Below, one piece after another: positions 11,155 through 20,249 of a stretch of 20,863 bases of DNA; position 1 is the first letter of the stretch, and each line of letters begins with the position of its first letter. The position numbers and the translations under genes are program-made. The stretch is taken from contig JBHIDR010000013.1 in NCBI GenBank assembly GCA_046760225.1, positions 1-20,863 of the forward strand, in the 5' to 3' direction. The notes beneath the pieces were generated by a model that saw nothing but the letters and a program-made list of their open reading frames with translations, did not search any database and was not told where the DNA came from. Origin of the DNA: Candidatus Aenigmatarchaeota archaeon. Its GTDB lineage: Archaea; Aenigmatarchaeota; Aenigmatarchaeia; Aenigmatarchaeales; JACQIB01.

Positions 11155-12090
11155 CTATCTCCTTCTTGCCTTATACCTGTAGCCCTTCTTCTTTGTTTTC
11201 AAGAAGTATGCTGCACCTGCTATTATTAAAATAACCACTACTGCAATCAGGACTGTGTAATCAGCAGCTTCTGTGGGTGCTTCTCCACCAGTTGGTTCTC
11301 CTTCATCTCCTGCTGGCGCACCTTCTCCTTCAGGAACACCCTCATCTGTTGGTGTTTCGCCCGGTTGTGCTTCAGCCTCTTCTGTCTCATTTGTTGGTGG
11401 TGCTCCTGTTGGTGCTGCTTCTCCTCCCTCTGCACCATCTCCTCCATCACCAGCACAGTCAGTGCAGCTTACTGAGAGCGATGCTGACTGGGAGCCTGCA
11501 TTCGAGCTTGTTATGCTTATTGATGCAGTGGTTGTAGCGCTTATGGTATAGCTGCATGTAAGGCTCTTGCTCTCGCCGCCGCCCACTCCGCCTGCTATTG
11601 TCCCATAGTCAAGAGAAGACGGGCTGCAGCCTGAAAGGGTTGCAGTCACGTCCTTTGCATTTGTCTCGCCAGTGTTCTGTATGTTTATGTTCACTGTCTG
11701 TGATGAGCCAGAAGTGCCAGAGATTGAATCAGCTGATACTGAGAGCGAGGGCGGAAGTATTACGTCAAAGCTGCTTGATGTGCCGGAATCAGGGGTACTG
11801 GATGTTGCGCTTATTGTCTGTGCGCTGAGCTTCTGGTCAGCTGTCACTGTCCATGAAAGCGGGCTGCTCCCTGTTTTCGTAAGCGAGTCAGATGTGGAGA
11901 AGCCTGTGGGAAGGCTCAGGCTGACCTGTGCTGTGCCTGACCATCCTGAAACAGAAACAGTGAAGGACCTTCCTTTCATAACTGTCCCTGGGTCTGCTCC
12001 TGCCTGGGATATGCCCACTGTGAGTGCTGCATGGCCAGGAAGGGAAAAAAGTAAAAATAAGACAATGGAGAACAAACTCATCCTCTTCAT
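11155..12090 (-). CDS. Secreted Ig/CARDB-like protein with acidic linker and C-terminal membrane anchor
   Basis: Signal peptide. Ser/Thr-rich beta domains with INIQNTGETNAKDV. E/G/A/P-rich linker, TM helix and basic tail KTKKKGYRYKARRR. Confidence 0.85.
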   Translation of the reverse strand: MKRMSLFSIVLFLLFSLPGHAALTVGISQAGADPGTVMKGRSFTVSVSGWSGTAQVSLSLPTGFSTSDSLTKTGSSPLSWTVTADQKLSAQTISATSSTPDSGTSSSFDVILPPSLSVSADSISGTSGSSQTVNINIQNTGETNAKDVTATLSGCSPSSLDYGTIAGGVGGGESKSLTCSYTISATTTASISITSSNAGSQSASLSVSCTDCAGDGGDGAEGGEAAPTGAPPTNETEEAEAQPGETPTDEGVPEGEGAPAGDEGEPTGGEAPTEAADYTVLIAVVVILIIAGAAYFLKTKKKGYRYKARRR

Positions 12091-15000
12091 TAAGGTCCAC
12101 CTCCACCGCCTTCAGCCTGTGCCCAAAGGTCTCCTATCTGGAACCAGTTGTCAACTGTCTCCGAGGTGCTGCCATATGTCACGTTCGTATTCAGCATGTA
12201 ATCTCCATCAGGCCATGCTCCAACAGGAGCCAGCTCTATCAGTGCATACCCCCCATCATCTGTGACGTTCTGTACGTAATTGACCGTATAGTCAGTGCTC
12301 TCTGTCAGTTTGGATGCACCGAATGCCCCGAACCTGTAGACAGTCAGCACTTCTGCTGTTGCACCTTGGATTGCTGACTGGTCAAAGTCATAAATCCTTA
12401 TTGCAAATGTGATGTTGTCCGTATTGTTTATCGTCCACCTGTCCTTGAAGAGCAGCATGTCTGTTTTGTTGTACCTCTTTATGTTCCATTCTGGCCTTAG
12501 CTCATATGGATAGCTCTCATTTATTTCCGCGAACCTCACGTTTCCATAATAGATTCCTGTCGGAGCATTGCCCCACTGCTCGCTTATTGAAGCCTGCTCA
12601 TTGCCGTAATAATCCGTGTAGGCTGCGCCTGAACCAGAGCTGTTCTGCCACCAGGGCTCTGTAATCATGGTATCATCATCTGTCAGTATGTTTGTCAGGT
12701 CCTGCTGCCCGTCCTCCCTGTCGTCAAACCCTATCATGTAGAACGTGCTGCCCAGCGACTTGTCCATGTCAAGGTCAAGTCCAACACTCGCCTCTGATAT
12801 TGCACCCGACCAGTAGGCTGGTGAATCATCAGCTGCCCTTACGTCAGCAGCAGGTACTGGCGGGGACACGCCAGTGCTGTTTATTATTACCATTCCGTCC
12901 CATGAGCCTGGTCCCACCCTTCCAAGGTAGAGGTCTGTGGCAAAGCTTCCGCCAATTGGCGTGCCTGAAACCCCAGTAAAGTTGCCGTCTGTACTGAACC
13001 ATGCGCTCTTTGCGCACTCATCAGTGTTCCATCTCGTGCACATCGGGTATTCAACTGATGTGTTGTTCGAAAGCAGCGCCATGTACTCTGCTCCGCTCAC
13101 ATTGTATGCTCCTGTCAGTGCCATTGCCCTCCATTTCGGTGCAGGGTTGCCTGACCAGTCCGAAATCCTTAGCGGTTCAATCACAGAAGAGTTCACGCCA
13201 TCAAAACCTACAACCACGCTGGCACTCGTTGCACTTGCATTGAGCACAAACAGCATGTATTTCTTGCCCTGATAGGTTATGTTTATCGGGTCGTACATAT
13301 CATACAGTGCTGTGCTTGATGTGTCATTGAACGTGCAGTTGGCTGTATTGACCCATAGCTTTGATGCATTTGCAGCAGTAACAAAATAGTAGTATCCCGG
13401 CAGGCTGCTCACAAATGTCCTGTTAACAGGGTCTATTCCAGCATCATCAGGCGGATATGCAACACTCCCAGGGCAATTGCTTATGGCCAGAGGGGATACT
13501 CCGGGGCATTCCAGGCTTGTGCTGCTGTTCTCTACAACCCTGTCACAGCCGTCAAAGTCAAGCACGCCCTCAATGTACATGTCTATGCTGGTGTCATTCA
13601 CAGTATACAGGTCCACCGGATCGCCGTAGTTTTCAGGGTCATACCTGTGGACATAAACCGGCTTGAAGTTTCTTATGTATCCTCCCATTCCCTGTTCAGA
13701 CCTGCTCAGGAATAACCTCACCCTTGTGAAAGGCCATTTCCATTCATCCAGATTTTCTGTTACGCCGTTTCTCTTCCCTATGATCTCGAACCTATACTCG
13801 CCTGCACCAAGAGCATAATCAGAAAGGTTTACCTTTATCTCGCCCTTTCCTGTTATCTCTTCTGTGACCCCGCTTCCAAGTGGCTTTATTTCCTCACCTG
13901 CTGTGGTCCTTACTCTTGCGTTCTTTACTGTGACATTCGCTGTTGTGTCAGCTCCTGCAGGTGTTGTAACAACAACAGGTATTGATATGTTGTCTCCTAG
14001 CTTGTATTCACCTATATCAGACCATTCACCTACTCCTTTGGAATATACCTTTATGTCCTCTGCCCTCGGATCGATATTAAGCAGTGTTATTGTGTCATTA
14101 TCCCCGAATGTTCTTGTGGATATATTGTCATTGATGCTTATCGGGTTTGTGAAATTGCTGTCACCAGAATAAAAGAACATGTCATAATATCCTGAGCTCG
14201 CATTGTCTGTCAGTGCAAAGTATACTGTATCATTGGTCATCCCGTTACCATTTATGTCAAGTCCTTTGTTGCCTGACATTGTCCATGCTCCCATCTGCTC
14301 TTCCCTCAGCATTCCTATCTTCACTTTCTTGCTTTGAGTATAGTTCGTATTTATGTAGGACCCTGTTTCTGCAAGCACGTTCTCCCCGCTAAGCTTCATT
14401 ACATTGTTGCTCAATGACTTTACCTTCCATTCCCCTCCATACGGGTCTGGTATTACCTGGTCTATGGCATAAGCAGTTGCACCGCTCATGTCAGTTCCTC
14501 CAGACATCCAGAGGTGCGTTGTGTTATGATAAGCATAGGCTGGCTTTGTTGTATTGAATCCTGGGAACTGTTCTTCCAGTCCCTCACTCCTTGCAAGGTT
14601 GACATATCCATGATAATAGGTTGTATCGGTTTGAGGAGGTATAAGAACATAGCTGTTCTGAGCACAGCCACCTGTGCCACAAACCCAGCTTTCACCGCAT
14701 ATCTTTCCGTCTGTATGCCTTAACTGAAGGTCATTGCTATCAATATTGGTTATGTTCCATGTCTTTCCTGCCAAGCTGAAAGTAGAATAGTTTGTCATTG
14801 CTGTTTCTGCAGAAAGATTTGAGCTGTTCCCTATCCATGCATGCGTATCATTCCTGACAACATACGCCTCGGTCCCGTTCGGGAAATAACTGCAGTCCCC
14901 CCACATCCATTGGCCAACAGTGTCTATGCAGTACTGTGCAGACCTGTAGCTGTCGCTAATATCTTTCTGTAAAAACTCTATGTCCACGCCATCACATACA

Positions 15001-18000
15001 TGGGTTGTGTTGGACGAGCACGTGTCAGGCACAGCATTTATTTGGTTGTCGCACCTGTCCTGGTTGTAGACGTCTCCTGACTCAAAATCAGGGCTGTCTG
15101 TTGTCCATACCCATCCCTCGCTTAAAACAGGGACCCCAAGCACATAGTTCTTGACAAAGAAGTCTATTCCCTCTGTCTTCTCCACCCCACTGGTGTCATT
15201 GATGTTGAACTCTGCAAAATAGAATCCTGATGTCAGGCTTACATTGAATGTCACATTGCATACATTGCCTGTACAGCTTGTTGAATAGTTGGCCTTCTCA
15301 GGCTTTCCGAGCTTCTCATTGAAGATCCTGTAAAGCCCTGTGCCTTGCGTACTGAGGTTGTGCGGGCTGTTATTGAAATCAGTCGCAGTGAACGTGACTG
15401 TTATGTTCTCGTACGGCTCGAAAACAACAGGCCACTGGTCGCTTCCCCTGTACTTTGTATCAACCTTGTAGCTTGATGTCTCAAACCAGAAGCTTCCTAT
15501 ATCAGATTTTCCGCCCACAGTGAACTTGACATTTGCCTGGTGCTCTCCTTCCCTTTCCAGGCCTGTCAGATTGAAGACATACATCTCTTCTGTACAGCCA
15601 GGCCCATAGCATCCTTCCATACTGACATTCTGGAGGCTTACGCTGGATGAATATGAAACAGGCGAAGGTGGTCCCCTCATGCTGTAGTACAGCACGTTTT
15701 CTACCACAGGAGCGCTGTCAGGAGTCAGTATGTCCCAGGTTCCTGGGTTTCTTGCCACAGCAGAGAACAGCACATCACCGCTCTTTTCAAAGCTTCTTGT
15801 TTCCCAGCTCATGGTATAGTTCTGGCCGTCATACTGCACCCCAGCCGTATCAATAAAGAAGTTCCTTATCTCGAACCAGCCCCATCCCATATAGGTGATG
15901 TTTGAGTTGTCAGGGTCCCTGAGTATTATGTCAACACCATACCAGCCTGTTGGGATGTCAAGTGTGGGTTGCGCTGCGCTCGGCCCTGTCAGCGTTATGG
16001 TTGCGCCTGATGTTGAATTTGTCACAGCTCCCTTTGACACATTGTAGTCTGATGTTGGTATTTCCTTCTCAATCTGGAAGTTTATCAGCTTGTCCACCTC
16101 AGCTATCAGACCTGTGCAGCCAGTGCAGCTCATGCTCCCGCCAACACCGCCCACAAACTTTCCTTTCTCAATGTCAACAACATTTACCTTCAGTGTCACG
16201 TTCTTCCCTGAATTAACAAAACAGAAGTTCTGGCCGCAGTCAACTTCTGCCCAGATGAAATACTTCTTTAGCATGAAGAACACATCGCCTGTTCCTTCCA
16301 TCTCTGTTCCTCCCACATCAGCCTTGAACCTGAATTTTGCCAGGAAGAAGCCCTCGCTGTTTGGTGATGTGAAGGAAATCGTGCCATTGGCAACGCTCTC
16401 ATTTGCAGCTGCCCTGTATGCAGGAGTGAACACATCCTGTCTTGGCTCTGGGAACTCCTTCCACATCTCAATTAGTTTTACGCTTGTTATGTTTTCTCCT
16501 GGTATTTCTGTGTCCGTCAGAAGGTCCCTTACATTCAGCTTTATCCTCACAGTGCTGTTCGGTGCAAAGAAGCCGAACTCCTCCCCATGGAAGTCCACTG
16601 TCTTTCCCCGGGCAAACAGCCTTTGCACACCAAAGGTAGAGCCTGCTTCCTTTGTCTCGAGCGGATGCGCAACCTTGACAACTGCATTGTATATCCCTGT
16701 CTTGTTGGGAGCAACGAATATTATCATGCACTGCCTCTGCACTTCTTTTGGTGGTCCCTCACCTCCTGGAGGCTGCATATCAGAAGGGAGGTAGTCAATA
16801 GCATCAGTAAGGTTCTTCACTAAGTACGATATGCTGCCCAGATAGGAGACCCCGTTCTCGTCTGTGAGCTTTTCCAAGGTCACATAGTCATCACATTCAT
16901 CGTCTGCTGTTGAGGAATTGTCGATGTCAACCATGCCTGTTGGCCCTTCAGGACCGAATCCCCCTCCTGTAACATTCTGCAGCATCACCATCAGTGTCAT
17001 GTTCTTTCCTGGTGCGAATGCTGTTACAAATGCTCCTGGCCCCTCGGCCTCATCAACATACTTCGTGTTTATGGGCTGTATTGTAAGCGTTAATGTCTCG
17101 ATTGCAAACCCGAGGTTTATTGTCTGCTGGTTGCTGCTGCTGTCTGTCCCGGTTATCTGTACCCCGTATTCGCCTGTTGGGTATCCTGTAGAGTCCCATT
17201 CACCTGAATAAGAGCCTGTTGAATCAACAGACATGCTCACAGATGTTGAGCTCCCATTTGGCAGGATTATCGATGTGGATATGGAGGAAAGATTGAACAG
17301 CGCTCCGGCAAGTGTTTTCGAAAGTGCTTCGAATTTTATTTTCGAGTTTGGTGCAAAGCTGTAAGTGGGGGAGCCTGTTACATCGGTTACCTTGCCAAAG
17401 AGCCTGAAGGCCTCCACGCTGAATATCTCTACTGCAGTGTCATTGGCATTTATTGTATAGATACCTGCTGTGCTCGGTGTGCTGAAGCTTGAATTGAAGT
17501 AACCCCAGCTGTTCGTGGTACCAACCAGGCTGTTGACAACAGTGCCGGCCTTGTTCCTTATTGTGATGTTGACAGCTACTGCCTGGTCCTGCTTCAGGTG
17601 GTGCGTGCTGTTTTCCACGAACATCATGAAGTAGGCTGTTTCTCCTGTGCCATAAACAGAATCAGGCACAGGAATGGCAAGGAACACCTTGTTTCCTGTA
17701 CTGAACTCTATCTTCTTTATTAAATAGCTTTCGAAAAGCTTTCCTTGTTTCAGCTGCCTTTCCACATTGTCCCCGTCCCCACTATCCTCTGTATCATTGT
17801 AGAGCCGGAAATCCATGTCATCATCTACATAGAGGGTGTCATAGGTCTCGTTTAAGTTCTCATCAACAAGAACAAAGCTCCAGTTCCTTCCTGAGAAATT
17901 GTAAAACCCATAATGCAGTGTTCCTGACTTGGAGAGGTCCCTCAGCTCAGTGAAGTTCCCTCCCATTGCATTGTCTGTTGTAATAAGTGTGCTCGTGTTT

Positions 18001-18389
18001 ATCGGTATTATGCTCGTGTTGTTTATCAGGTTCGCCTCATGGGTCAGCAGCTCTGAAACAACCTTGTAATGTATTAGCACATAGTCCGAGCCGTTGTACA
18101 CCCTTGCAGTATAGTCATCAGCTGCACCTGCAGAAAAAGAGAAAACATAGCTCCCACCAGAAACGCTCGTGTTTGTTGTGCTGAGCACAACATCAGAGGT
18201 GGAGTTTGTTACATTGAGCGTTAGCAGAACACTCGCAGCACTTGCATTTCCTGTTATTCTTACTGTGTCACCTGTCTCGTATATTATCTTGTCCGCACTG
18301 CCGCTTATTGTATAGGCACCTGCTGCTGAAGTCAGCACAAGCGAAAAAAATACAGTTATGATTATAAATTTTCCTTTATTCAATCCCAC
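12090..18389 (-). CDS. Giant secreted multi-domain surface glycoprotein (~2099 aa)
   Basis: Signal peptide, many NxS/T sequons, repeated Ig/MG2-like domain starts, Cys pairs, no C-terminal TM. Start is GTG 18389 or TTG 18383 (after GGGGTG). Confidence 0.9.
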   Translation of the reverse strand: MGLNKGKFIIITVFFSLVLTSAAGAYTISGSADKIIYETGDTVRITGNASAASVLLTLNVTNSTSDVVLSTTNTSVSGGSYVFSFSAGAADDYTARVYNGSDYVLIHYKVVSELLTHEANLINNTSIIPINTSTLITTDNAMGGNFTELRDLSKSGTLHYGFYNFSGRNWSFVLVDENLNETYDTLYVDDDMDFRLYNDTEDSGDGDNVERQLKQGKLFESYLIKKIEFSTGNKVFLAIPVPDSVYGTGETAYFMMFVENSTHHLKQDQAVAVNITIRNKAGTVVNSLVGTTNSWGYFNSSFSTPSTAGIYTINANDTAVEIFSVEAFRLFGKVTDVTGSPTYSFAPNSKIKFEALSKTLAGALFNLSSISTSIILPNGSSTSVSMSVDSTGSYSGEWDSTGYPTGEYGVQITGTDSSSNQQTINLGFAIETLTLTIQPINTKYVDEAEGPGAFVTAFAPGKNMTLMVMLQNVTGGGFGPEGPTGMVDIDNSSTADDECDDYVTLEKLTDENGVSYLGSISYLVKNLTDAIDYLPSDMQPPGGEGPPKEVQRQCMIIFVAPNKTGIYNAVVKVAHPLETKEAGSTFGVQRLFARGKTVDFHGEEFGFFAPNSTVRIKLNVRDLLTDTEIPGENITSVKLIEMWKEFPEPRQDVFTPAYRAAANESVANGTISFTSPNSEGFFLAKFRFKADVGGTEMEGTGDVFFMLKKYFIWAEVDCGQNFCFVNSGKNVTLKVNVVDIEKGKFVGGVGGSMSCTGCTGLIAEVDKLINFQIEKEIPTSDYNVSKGAVTNSTSGATITLTGPSAAQPTLDIPTGWYGVDIILRDPDNSNITYMGWGWFEIRNFFIDTAGVQYDGQNYTMSWETRSFEKSGDVLFSAVARNPGTWDILTPDSAPVVENVLYYSMRGPPSPVSYSSSVSLQNVSMEGCYGPGCTEEMYVFNLTGLEREGEHQANVKFTVGGKSDIGSFWFETSSYKVDTKYRGSDQWPVVFEPYENITVTFTATDFNNSPHNLSTQGTGLYRIFNEKLGKPEKANYSTSCTGNVCNVTFNVSLTSGFYFAEFNINDTSGVEKTEGIDFFVKNYVLGVPVLSEGWVWTTDSPDFESGDVYNQDRCDNQINAVPDTCSSNTTHVCDGVDIEFLQKDISDSYRSAQYCIDTVGQWMWGDCSYFPNGTEAYVVRNDTHAWIGNSSNLSAETAMTNYSTFSLAGKTWNITNIDSNDLQLRHTDGKICGESWVCGTGGCAQNSYVLIPPQTDTTYYHGYVNLARSEGLEEQFPGFNTTKPAYAYHNTTHLWMSGGTDMSGATAYAIDQVIPDPYGGEWKVKSLSNNVMKLSGENVLAETGSYINTNYTQSKKVKIGMLREEQMGAWTMSGNKGLDINGNGMTNDTVYFALTDNASSGYYDMFFYSGDSNFTNPISINDNISTRTFGDNDTITLLNIDPRAEDIKVYSKGVGEWSDIGEYKLGDNISIPVVVTTPAGADTTANVTVKNARVRTTAGEEIKPLGSGVTEEITGKGEIKVNLSDYALGAGEYRFEIIGKRNGVTENLDEWKWPFTRVRLFLSRSEQGMGGYIRNFKPVYVHRYDPENYGDPVDLYTVNDTSIDMYIEGVLDFDGCDRVVENSSTSLECPGVSPLAISNCPGSVAYPPDDAGIDPVNRTFVSSLPGYYYFVTAANASKLWVNTANCTFNDTSSTALYDMYDPINITYQGKKYMLFVLNASATSASVVVGFDGVNSSVIEPLRISDWSGNPAPKWRAMALTGAYNVSGAEYMALLSNNTSVEYPMCTRWNTDECAKSAWFSTDGNFTGVSGTPIGGSFATDLYLGRVGPGSWDGMVIINSTGVSPPVPAADVRAADDSPAYWSGAISEASVGLDLDMDKSLGSTFYMIGFDDREDGQQDLTNILTDDDTMITEPWWQNSSGSGAAYTDYYGNEQASISEQWGNAPTGIYYGNVRFAEINESYPYELRPEWNIKRYNKTDMLLFKDRWTINNTDNITFAIRIYDFDQSAIQGATAEVLTVYRFGAFGASKLTESTDYTVNYVQNVTDDGGYALIELAPVGAWPDGDYMLNTNVTYGSTSETVDNWFQIGDLWAQAEGGGGGP

Positions 18390-18501
18390 ACCCCATTTTA
18401 GTTTACTTAAGCCTCCTTATAAAGGTTTTGCTGTATTTAATTGTAATATTTATTGTTACAACTCCAATATATATTTAACGTTCTGCCTCAAAACGGGCCT
18501 A

Positions 18502-18509
18502 TTTATAAA
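18502..18509 (+). promoter_or_regulatory. TATA box of the SRP RNA gene
   Basis: TTTATAAA centred about 26 nt upstream of the predicted 5' end (G18532). Confidence 0.75.
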
Positions 18510-18701
18510 GATTGATATTCAAGATTTCATTGGCAGGGAGCTAGACTGGGGGGCTCGTCCTACCCTGTAAGCGCAAATGGGCGTTATGGTGCGGTCGAAG
18601 CTTGAGGGCGGTGCAGGAAGTCTGTAAGGTCCTGCTAGCCAACTGAGAAGCGCCGTCCTGCAGAGTTGGTGTTATAGCGAACTGGGTCAGACTGGGAACA
18701 G

Positions 18702-19338
18702 AGGAGGATAAGTGATGGAAATGAACGAAGCATATTTGGTAGGATACACTATTGGAGACGGCTGTCTGTATAGCTGTAGCCATGTGTTTAGTTTGGACCC
18801 TAGAAAGAGTCTAATGGACTACGAAATTACGTGGGGCGATAAAGATTTGGAACAGTTGGGGCTAATTGAGAGAATAGTAAAATCTTTGTTTCCTCATGTA
18901 TACCTAAAAACAAAGATTAGAAAAAAATCAAAGGGCAAAATCCTCAGGTGTCGTAGAAAAAAAGTTTTTTTACACCTTAAAGAGCTGCTCTCTAAAGATA
19001 TGAAAAGTGAGACAAAGGAAAACATAGCAGCCTTTATAAGTGGGTTTTGTGATGCCGAAGGTGATATCGGCAAAACCAATAATGGAACATACAAAGGCAA
19101 GATATACTACAAGCCCCGTATCCAAGTAACTCAAAAAGATAAGGCTATCTTAGAACAAATAAAGGAGTTACTTGAAAAAAAATTCAATATAAAATCTAGA
19201 ATTCATAAAAAATGGGATCAAGACGCATATATCTTGCAGATAAGTGGATGTAAACAAGTATCTATTTTCAAAAAGGAAATAAATTTTAGAAATCCTACCA
19301 AATGTGCAAAGTTAGAAAGTATACTTTCCTCCGTTCAA
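18702..19338 (+). mobile_element. 637-nt bulge-helix-bulge archaeal intron in SRP RNA helix 8, carrying a homing endonuclease gene
   Basis: Central 4-bp helix GAAC (18696-99)/GTTC (19333-36). 3-nt bulges AGA (18700-02) and AAA (19337-39). Intron-side helix GGAGGA(T)AAGT (18703-13)/ACTTTCCTCC (19323-32). Cutting after the second nt of each bulge restores the SRP54-binding motif. Confidence 0.88.
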
Positions 19339-19356
19339 AGCAGCCCTAAGTTGTAG
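18715..19356 (+). CDS. Double-motif LAGLIDADG homing endonuclease (intron-encoded)
   Basis: Motif 1 AYLVGYTIGDG, motif 2 AAFISGFCDAEG, then RIQVTQKD..ILEQIKELL..F.I.S.I. SD GGAGG at 18703-07, start ATG 18715 (or GTG 18712). Visibly AT-richer than the flanking genes. Confidence 0.9.
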   Translation: MEMNEAYLVGYTIGDGCLYSCSHVFSLDPRKSLMDYEITWGDKDLEQLGLIERIVKSLFPHVYLKTKIRKKSKGKILRCRRKKVFLHLKELLSKDMKSETKENIAAFISGFCDAEGDIGKTNNGTYKGKIYYKPRIQVTQKDKAILEQIKELLEKKFNIKSRIHKKWDQDAYILQISGCKQVSIFKKEINFRNPTKCAKLESILSSVQSSPKL

Positions 19357-19446
19357 CATCAGCGTTTGCAGGGTCGCGGCGTGGAGAAGGCTGACAGGGT
19401 AAGCTTTATGGGTTTTCTGTATCAACCAAAGGCATGCTTCCTGCCA

Positions 19447-19455
19447 TTTTTATTT
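19447..19455 (+). terminator. T-tract terminator of SRP RNA, overlapping the TATA-like TTTAAA of the next gene
   Basis: TTTTTATTT directly after the 3' strand of helix 1. Confidence 0.6.
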
Positions 19456-19475
19456 AAAGGGATGCAATGATTTTT

Positions 19476-20249
19476 ATGGCCAGGAAGAGAAGGAAAACAA
19501 GCAATCTCCAGCTTGTCCTAGTTGTACTGGTTGTGTTCCTTGCAGGCGTTCTCACAGCCCTGCAGTTCATGGAGCCAAAAGAAATTATTCAGCCAATACA
19601 GGTAATAAAGAACCTCACTGTCCCGCCCCAGATTAGTGAAGGTTCTCGGGTGGAGATGCTCGTTCCAGCAGTGGACACGGATGGCAATGGCGTCACAACC
19701 AGGCTAATGGTAGAGGCAAAGCCAGGCACAGGAAAGGTGCTTACCAATATCGACATACTGCTCTTCTGGGTGGACACCCAGCAATCGATACAGGTTGCAA
19801 GGGACGTTGCAAAGAACATAACAGGCATAGACACTGATGCGCTTGACATCACATATGCAATAGAGGCAGACAATGTGAGCCTTGTTGGCGGTCCTTCAGC
19901 AGGCGCTGCCCTCACAGTTGCCACTATTGCTGCGCTCCAGGCAAAGCAGCCCGACCCAAATGCAGCAATAACAGGCACAATAAACCCGGACGGAACAATA
20001 GGAAAGGTCGGTTCTGTGTATGAAAAGGCAAGGGCAGTGAAAAGGGACAATGTCATGACATTGCTCGTGCCCACCGGTGAAGGCGTTGAAATCACAGTAA
20101 GGCCAATTGAGAAATGCATAGAAGAGCCCGAGTTTACTTTCTGCGAGACCTACTACAAGCAGAAGAAGGTCAATATAGGGGAAGCACTTGGCATGGAAGT
20201 CATAGAGGTTGGCAATGTCTCAGAAGCACTGCCCTATTTCTTTGAATAA
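19476..20249 (+). CDS. Membrane-anchored Lon-type (S16) serine protease domain protein without ATPase
   Basis: N-terminal TM, GGPSAGAALTVA (catalytic Ser), ITGTINPDGTIGKVG..YEK (catalytic Lys). Start is 19476 or 19467. Confidence 0.9.
   Translation: MARKRRKTSNLQLVLVVLVVFLAGVLTALQFMEPKEIIQPIQVIKNLTVPPQISEGSRVEMLVPAVDTDGNGVTTRLMVEAKPGTGKVLTNIDILLFWVDTQQSIQVARDVAKNITGIDTDALDITYAIEADNVSLVGGPSAGAALTVATIAALQAKQPDPNAAITGTINPDGTIGKVGSVYEKARAVKRDNVMTLLVPTGEGVEITVRPIEKCIEEPEFTFCETYYKQKKVNIGEALGMEVIEVGNVSEALPYFFE

Follow-up and report, generated by a model that had tools for sequence, protein, structure and literature searches.

Among the closest described relatives of the locus studied here is the permuted SRP RNA gene of Thermoproteus tenax. 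According to the accessible part of the report by Plagens et al. (2015; PMC4731332), T. tenax EndA cleaves a BHB motif at the helix-8 tip of the permuted SRP RNA, the open RNA binds SRP19 and SRP54 worse, and an ancestor with simple BHB introns is plausible for the permuted gene. BHB introns of about 630 nt that encode single-chain, double-motif LAGLIDADG enzymes are described for archaeal 16S and 23S rRNA, among them those of I-DmoI from Desulfurococcus mobilis and of I-Tsp061I (consulted parts of PMC3608112, PMC8598171, PMC13565253 and PMC3326292). For phage T4 SegB beside tRNA genes and the cyanophage psbA system, the accessible text of PMC13565253 describes a free-standing enzyme beside a stable-RNA gene, and ORF-less and composite introns for one target. 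The archaeal SRP RNA itself (RF01857), as presented in the available part of Zwieb and Bhuiyan (2010; PMC2905702), has helix 1, a UGUNR motif, a 5e region and a helix 8 with GGAA loop and SRP54 motif, and the same text reports SRP19 in all archaeal subgroups then known and a GGGA loop in Thermoproteales and Nitrosopumilales. Circular 7S RNA segments of unknown function were found in Sulfolobus and Halobacterium, as stated in the consulted part of PMC3326292.

The window analysed here, a whole stretch of 20,863 nt, is contig C13 of the host assembly G000 (851 kb, 83% complete), and judged from its sequence it quite probably holds the resident SRP RNA gene of the host, split by a mobile-type, protein-spliced archaeal BHB intron (Table 1). 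Of 33 matches to the ribosomal protein S3Ae encoded there, the 4 with a named organism all come from Aenigmatarchaeota, and we place the host in that group. As for the T. tenax RNA, maturation would proceed through a helix-8-tip BHB cut by EndA, plus RtcB as proposed there (accessible part of PMC4731332), but in the window the gene order is normal, with the 5′ half first and helix 1 kept, unlike a permutation of the Thermoproteus type, and a linear product and an excised coding intron would result. The BHB junctions, the length and the type of enzyme are those of the rRNA introns, whereas the host RNA is SRP RNA, the organisms are DPANN archaea, the enzyme is only 19–26% identical, and its sisters stand free beside SRP genes. 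The SRP family resembles the T4 SegB and psbA systems in having free-standing, ORF-less and composite forms, and differs from them by its archaeal chromosomes, protein-spliced introns, LAGLIDADG enzyme and target, which is predicted. The RNA has the named elements of RF01857 but is interrupted and without helix 6. The chemistry of splicing and homing belongs to a known kind; what is new, as far as searched, is the gene that hosts the intron, the agreement with a published prediction and the series from free-standing enzyme to intron. The original prediction knew of no mobile endonuclease intron in SRP RNA, and our search of the full-text literature, with subscription journals and preprint supplements outside its scope, likewise found no SRP RNA intron; the accessible parts of PMC7714728, PMC12397907, bioRxiv 10.64898/2026.10.13.758758, PMC13565253, PMC8598171, PMC4238349, PMC5829648 and PMC3608112 do not mention SRP. 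SRP RNA would thereby join the short list of archaeal intron hosts, and protein targeting would be made dependent on tRNA-splicing enzymes.

Table 1. Features of the interrupted SRP RNA gene and its surroundings (positions in the window)
Feature	Position	Strand	Evidence and remarks
TATA-like box	18502-18509	+	Sequence; ~23 nt upstream of helix 1; putative function
SRP RNA exon 1	18532-18701	+	RF01857 model 1-212, 56.4 bits, E 1.6e-12; helix 1 5′ strand, Alu domain, helix 5 5′ strand, helix 8 5′ strand, GGAA tetraloop, 3-bp tip stem
Helix 1 strands	18532-18541 / 19436-19445	+	Sequence
UGUAA of Alu domain	18566-18570	+	Sequence
BHB central helix	18696-18699 (5′ strand) / 19333-19336 (3′ strand)	+	5′ strand: last three tetraloop bases and C
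5′ bulge	18700-18702	+	Putative cut 18701/18702, between model positions 212 and 213
BHB intron	18702-19338	+	637 nt; GC 0.35 vs about 0.52-0.58 in exons
Intron stem	18703-18708 (5′ strand) / 19327-19332 (3′ strand)	+	
LAGLIDADG homing endonuclease ORF	18715-19356	+	213 aa, double-motif; in-frame GTG at 18712
3′ bulge	19337-19339	+	Putative cut 19338/19339
SRP RNA exon 2	19339-19445	+	RF01857 model 213-317, 24.4 bits, E 2.7e-4; AGCA strand of SRP54-binding loop, 3′ strands of helices 8, 5, 1
T-rich terminator-like tract	19447-19455	+	Sequence; putative function
Lon-like (S16) membrane protein gene	19467-20249	+	Syntenic marker; also after empty SRP gene in G001

Searched unsplit, the window gave only 35.1 bits with Rfam RF01857 (gathering cut-off 96.5). 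We then searched the stretches 18500-18701 and 19339-19480, whose inner ends were set at the proposed cuts while the resulting model positions were not chosen, and they matched contiguous parts of the model. Joined exons were scored on a profile of 30 intact relatives (the Rfam model itself was applied to the two halves) and reached 234 bits, within the relatives' own range of 146–247; on this profile shifted joins of the same length tied or nearly tied, joins altering the length were at least 6 bits lower, and variants of the cut position on the 3-nt bulge, which amount to the same pairing, were excluded as controls. Moreover, the joined form keeps 89 of 91 consensus pairs, and comparison with the SRP gene of G001, a member of the same genus (76% identical), showed 8 compensatory and 12 one-sided changes and 0 broken pairs; thus the exons are under selection as a folded RNA. 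Helix 8, with its GNRA loop and SRP54-binding motif, is complete only once the intron is removed. The flanks of the insert had been predicted to fold together into an archaeal SRP RNA, and this identification holds; the TATA box, helix 1, UGUAA, T-tract and BHB parts all lie where they had been placed, and the predicted intron limits agree with the contiguous model positions and with the recurrence of introns at this one site described below. An intact second SRP gene, which would have made this copy a dead insertion, was not found: the sole SRP match in the 83%-complete assembly is this gene, and a second copy could lie in the missing 17% of the genome. In G001 an empty, intron-less SRP gene occupies the matching locus, again before the Lon-like gene and with S15, S3Ae and small membrane genes upstream. 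Between the small membrane gene and the SRP gene the window also carries genes for a 2099-aa MG2-domain surface protein and a 311-aa surface protein (11155-18389, minus strand), both missing from that position in G001. A sigma-70 promoter and terminator scan of the window, which is unsuited to archaea, gave chance levels.

A canonical BHB is cut after the second base of each bulge, and such a cut restores the host RNA exactly at the model junction and with the pairs counted above. The BHB geometry, with a 4-bp helix and two 3-nt bulges on opposite strands, is present in all nine distinct copies of the intron that we compared, and every one of the 36 cells of the central helix is paired; for the first five stem pairs 43 of 45 cells are paired, compared with 17–26 of 45 when the strands are slid, with up to 4 pair types per column. 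The BHB stems are thus conserved and covarying in 9/9 copies. For the precursor, ensemble folding gives the central helix and the intron stem pairing probabilities of 0.92–0.99 at 37°C (0.99 for the 5′ strand of the central helix) and 0.83–0.93 at 60°C, and the mature helix-8 tip a probability of about 0. The predicted BHB geometry holds, but the exon-side helix is imperfect: a G-G mismatch lies beside the 3′ bulge at its start in 9/9 copies, which makes this a BHB of the relaxed form. A Shine-Dalgarno-like GGAGG, 7 nt upstream of the ATG, coincides with the 5′ strand of the intron stem, and the ribosome-binding site of the endonuclease is thus probably sequestered in the stem, which suggests a role in translation.

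These features suggest the following course of events. A single transcript of ~914 nt would be made, in which the helix-8 tetraloop pairs with the 3′ end of the intron and blocks the mature helix-8 tip. The two-subunit EndA of the host would cut after the second base of each bulge, and RtcB would join the exons into a helix-6-less SRP RNA of ~277 nt with a complete SRP54 site and would also close the excised intron into a circle. The endonuclease may be made from the precursor (213 aa) or from the circle (231 aa), and its yield is probably low, since the intron stem contains its ribosome-binding site; it would cut intron-less SRP alleles near helix 8, and repair would copy the intron, co-convert adjacent exon bases and so spread it between lineages. 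Because related archaea carry this intron again, as well as shorter ones, the essential RNA very probably must be spliced, and in all likelihood the intron is indeed spliced and the exons are ligated. Spread by homing is likely as well, with somewhat less assurance.

The predicted LAGLIDADG frame gave a Pfam LAGLIDADG_3 match (E 2.4e-15); it was thought to be encoded by the intron, but its stop codon sits in exon 2, outside the intron. Its predicted structure (pLDDT 86) has I-Tsp061I and I-DmoI as best folds, with TM about 0.7, and in sequence and predicted structure two LAGLIDADG helices with acidic residues and a two-domain fold characterize it as a single-chain enzyme. I-DmoI reportedly has two forms, which the different readings of the window frame in the precursor and round the intron circle recall. 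A reading in which the intron is spliced while the endonuclease is a passenger, having stopped homing or not being directed at this site, and in which an old insertion was repeatedly lost, is unlikely. It would accommodate the strain contigs, where four of the five differences inside the endonuclease gene alter an amino acid, which fits present-day drift, and the endonuclease tree, which broadly separates Nanobdellota-linked from Aenigmatarchaeota-linked copies and has a poorly resolved base; also a 17-nt ORF-less intron in G139 (L119), at the window's own site and with the same flank, may be a decayed end state. But dN/dS is 0.13–0.18 in 6/6 pairs computed, the frame is intact and D15 and E115 are invariant in all 11 aligned endonuclease sequences, presence in <1% of genomes would require hundreds of losses, and every close homologue among the loci recovered lies at an SRP gene.

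Homing is also the context in which we consider the distribution of the intron. Ten endonuclease homologues are 50–61% identical to the window protein, and this identity across hosts equals that of SRP54 (48–60%) across comparable hosts. Endonuclease loci were recovered from 1 of 66 candidate stretches in genomes and 8 of 88 in metagenomes; relatives were found in 0 of 107 candidate stretches in viral contigs, and none in the phage collection. Eight of the nine recovered loci lie inside SRP genes at the same nucleotide as in the window, and the ninth (L045, 25% identity) lies outside SRP genes and was rejected as a family copy. L037 and L043, seemingly identical, were counted once among distinct copies. 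One more copy was added from G173, a genome of another family: of 19 weaker LAGLIDADG loci only L047 has SRP sequence, with its intron at the same site. The suggested screen for split SRP genes flanking LAGLIDADG frames was thus productive: eight other distinct copies, 628–641 nt long, occupy the identical SRP site, some of them in Nanobdellota and one from a named Nanoarchaeota (Nanobdellota) genome. Strong endonuclease matches occur in 2 of 371 genomes of the host phylum, and 1 intron copy was found among 401 genomes of a second phylum; the endonuclease intron is patchily distributed. Against a profile made from members of the host's order, the joined Nanobdellota forms reach a weak 52–77 bits, and searching for the 3′ exon of L037/L043 by itself did not recover it. 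The 639-nt intron of L037 (167-805) is a multiple of three and its circle has no in-frame stop over the translated length, so that this circle could encode an endless frame.

The exon flank YUG-GGAA-CAR is found in 8 of 371 genomes, comprising 3/3 alleles occupied at this site and 5 empty ones, and its U pairs with the invariant A of AGCA in 9/9 precursors. Between L038 and the near-identical empty gene of G027, 12 of 273 columns differ, two of which form the tip pair beside the intron. The shared flank looks like co-conversion and may be that; a splicing requirement explains it equally.

Relatives of the endonuclease also stand free. In G519 an intact SRP gene, scoring 142 bits in Rfam, is followed by a relative of 245 aa that has a TATA-like box of its own, and the pair (L073, 995-2160) is enclosed by remnant-like older 5′ and 3′ SRP ends that pair over 9 bp, a layout possibly representing an SRP-plus-endonuclease cassette that took the place of the resident gene. 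In G614 the arrangement is similar and the SRP 3′ end is duplicated; this genome is unpublished and may not be published unless its depositors permit it, and only the present statement and one row of the tree depend on it. The 15 proteins of the intron type group in one clade with support of 98/96, and the free-standing forms, which are longer at the N terminus, fall outside; because the tree is midpoint-rooted and its base is open, it does not give the order from free-standing to intron. Taken together, these forms make up a family of homing endonucleases, in small archaea of the symbiont type, whose single target can be predicted, and they offer a natural series of a free-standing enzyme, an empty and a composite intron in which to follow how BHB introns turn mobile.

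Processing by the host was considered next to its encoded machinery, which includes EndA paralogues and RtcB. Two adjacent EndA paralogues lie on contig C2 (G000:C2, L032; 238-729 and 1195-1803). By eye, both appear to lack the usual triad lysine; in the catalytic-type paralogue this change, shared with G001 and G015, weighs against the proposed processing. In the catalytic-type protein a lysine-rich insertion precedes the catalytic histidine; G001 and G015 have it too, G371 does not. Relaxed BHB motifs need two-subunit or epsilon-type EndA, or loop insertions, according to the consulted part of PMC5829648. Introns are present in 13 of 21 predicted host tRNAs, and host rtcB (G000:C35, L035) carries BHB inserts of 30 and 32 nt (1544-1573 and 1646-1677) in conserved motifs, its frame being 481 aa only without both. 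Hence the host evidently uses its splicing machinery. The 67 candidates from a strict BHB scan of the whole genome, which had no control, were considered only for the two rtcB introns and the tRNA sites.

It is very improbable that EndA excises the insert and leaves the exons unligated, with SRP RNA as two base-paired fragments: helices 1 and 5 would keep the halves together in the fold, but the nick would fall directly beside the SRP54-binding loop, where the weaker binding by the open T. tenax S-domain (accessible part of PMC4731332) is of concern, and the host encodes RtcB. Less probable still is an insert that stays unprocessed, the gene being dead or the insertion tolerated, and SRP lost or encoded elsewhere. 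SRP54 and SRP19 were indeed not found in the 83%-complete G000 assembly, which such a loss would explain; SRP54 is, however, present in 29 of 30 relatives and encoded by the intron-bearing G371, and we read its gap in G000 as probable assembly incompleteness. SRP19 was found in 0 of 41 genomes searched, by a search whose control missed Sulfolobus, and it is missing together with helix 6. Against a dead gene there are also the absence of broken pairs relative to G001, with 20 pair-preserving changes, and the covarying BHB in every copy. An assembly chimera or a self-splicing group I intron is scarcely credible and already largely refuted, since single contigs span both junctions in 4/4 DNA runs (one study, labelled hydrothermal vent metagenome and possibly the source of the assembly, which leaves the misassembly reading some room), 8 other copies come from unrelated assemblies, no Rfam group I match was found in the window, and the ORF takes up all but 13 nt of the insert, too little for a ribozyme.

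Ligated exons remain the reading that we prefer, and the mature RNA would have a peculiar S domain. In the window SRP RNA, 40 model positions of helix 6 are replaced by 1, and intact relatives of this order have SRP RNAs of about 270 nt without helix 6 that score above the Rfam cut-off. This apparent co-loss of helix 6 and SRP19 would leave a helix-8-only S domain with an Alu domain. FtsY is present in G000 and is cut at a contig end. Exon-exon joints, representing an empty allele, were not found in the 4 DNA runs, and a mixed population of empty and filled genes was not seen there.

Shorter introns were sought among RF01857 matches, which were present in 323 of 371 host-phylum genomes and 142 of 151 Nanobdellota genomes. 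We examined 61 over-long or odd matches (56 from the host phylum and 5 from Nanobdellota), and since many matches of 280–290 nt were left out, the intron counts are lower bounds. The best deletion, chosen blind to structure, had a BHB in 17 of 61 matches (one without a real insertion), compared with 2.75% at random positions of the same length, and among placements within 6 bits, the 3-nt-bulge geometry occurred in 24 of 58 loci with an insertion, compared with 5–10 of 58 for other bulge sizes. After three of the 24 strict calls (L084, L085 and L132) were dropped as doubtful placements, there were at least 18 strict ORF-less SRP introns in the host phylum and at least 3 in Nanobdellota; a relaxed list, judged by eye and without a control of its own, adds 18 among the 323 host-phylum matches. 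Intron sites cluster in the Alu UGUNR motif, the helix-4 loop, both helix 8 strands and just past helix 8. These placements suggest that a wider set of SRP RNA introns exists in DPANN archaea. L104-L106, L109 and G011 were rejected as introns and read as Alu hairpin extensions, the reading of L082 and L089 as helix extensions was rejected, and L098, L116-L118, L123-L125, L127, L129, L131, L134, L075, G016 and G024 carry no class assignment. It had been suggested that such introns explain SRP RNAs missed by annotation. This holds for the endonuclease-bearing copies, which score 35, 24 and 21 bits in Rfam, but not for the 48 of 371 genomes without a match, since strong endonuclease matches occur in only 2 of all 371; because these copies fall far below the cut-off, SRP RNA should be called absent from a DPANN genome only after a search that allows for introns.

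Five ORF-less introns (G246, G081, G223, G245 and G068; four families) sit exactly at the junction used by T. tenax, which lies 1 nt past the tetraloop as read from the 'Open' and 'BHB' oligonucleotides in the accessible part of PMC4731332, whereas in the window the offset is 3 nt. The suggestion that the window resembles a precursor of permuted SRP genes needs refining, in that these relatives have the exact junction and the window's own site lies 2 nt off. In G081 (39-nt intron) the two helix strands and the two bulges match the published T. tenax substrate letter for letter, as far as that source is available. A GGGA loop occurs in 4 of 5 introns at this junction, compared with 0 of 63 parsable uninterrupted tips among 91 sequences; common origin and convergence on a stronger helix both fit. 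We tentatively propose, as a view that we would not yet favour, that SRP RNA is a general, unrecognised archaeal intron host with its own endonuclease family at three stages (free-standing, ORF-less intron and composite), and that the introns at the T. tenax junction are precursors of the permuted gene by shared origin; if so, the intron and its exon flank were transferred between DPANN archaea and Thermoproteales. In any case, Plagens et al. had proposed an SRP gene with introns as forerunner of the permuted one; actual cases of such a gene now exist, some of them with the intron at the T. tenax junction, which makes the proposal testable.

Several SRP genes showed further peculiarities. In Nanobdellota, L095-L097 (G413, G386 and G458) have 37–46-nt BHB introns inside the CAGG strand of the SRP54-binding loop, and the SRP match of L098 (G489) is its 5′ part only, helix 8 and the 3′ half not being found in 1.4 kb. 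L089, L093, L094 and L075 seemingly have two separate inserts each. The inserts of family f21 (L076, L079, L083, L085, L087, L090 and L092) share AT-rich T-run/A-run hairpins, which resemble a repeated miniature element and are also found just downstream of some of those genes. Outside SRP genes, the host has a tRNA-Tyr gene with a 693-nt intron holding an unrelated LAGLIDADG gene (G000:C3, 24967-25736), and distant LAGLIDADG relatives in G027 (L048) and G183 (L062) lie near intron-containing tRNA genes.
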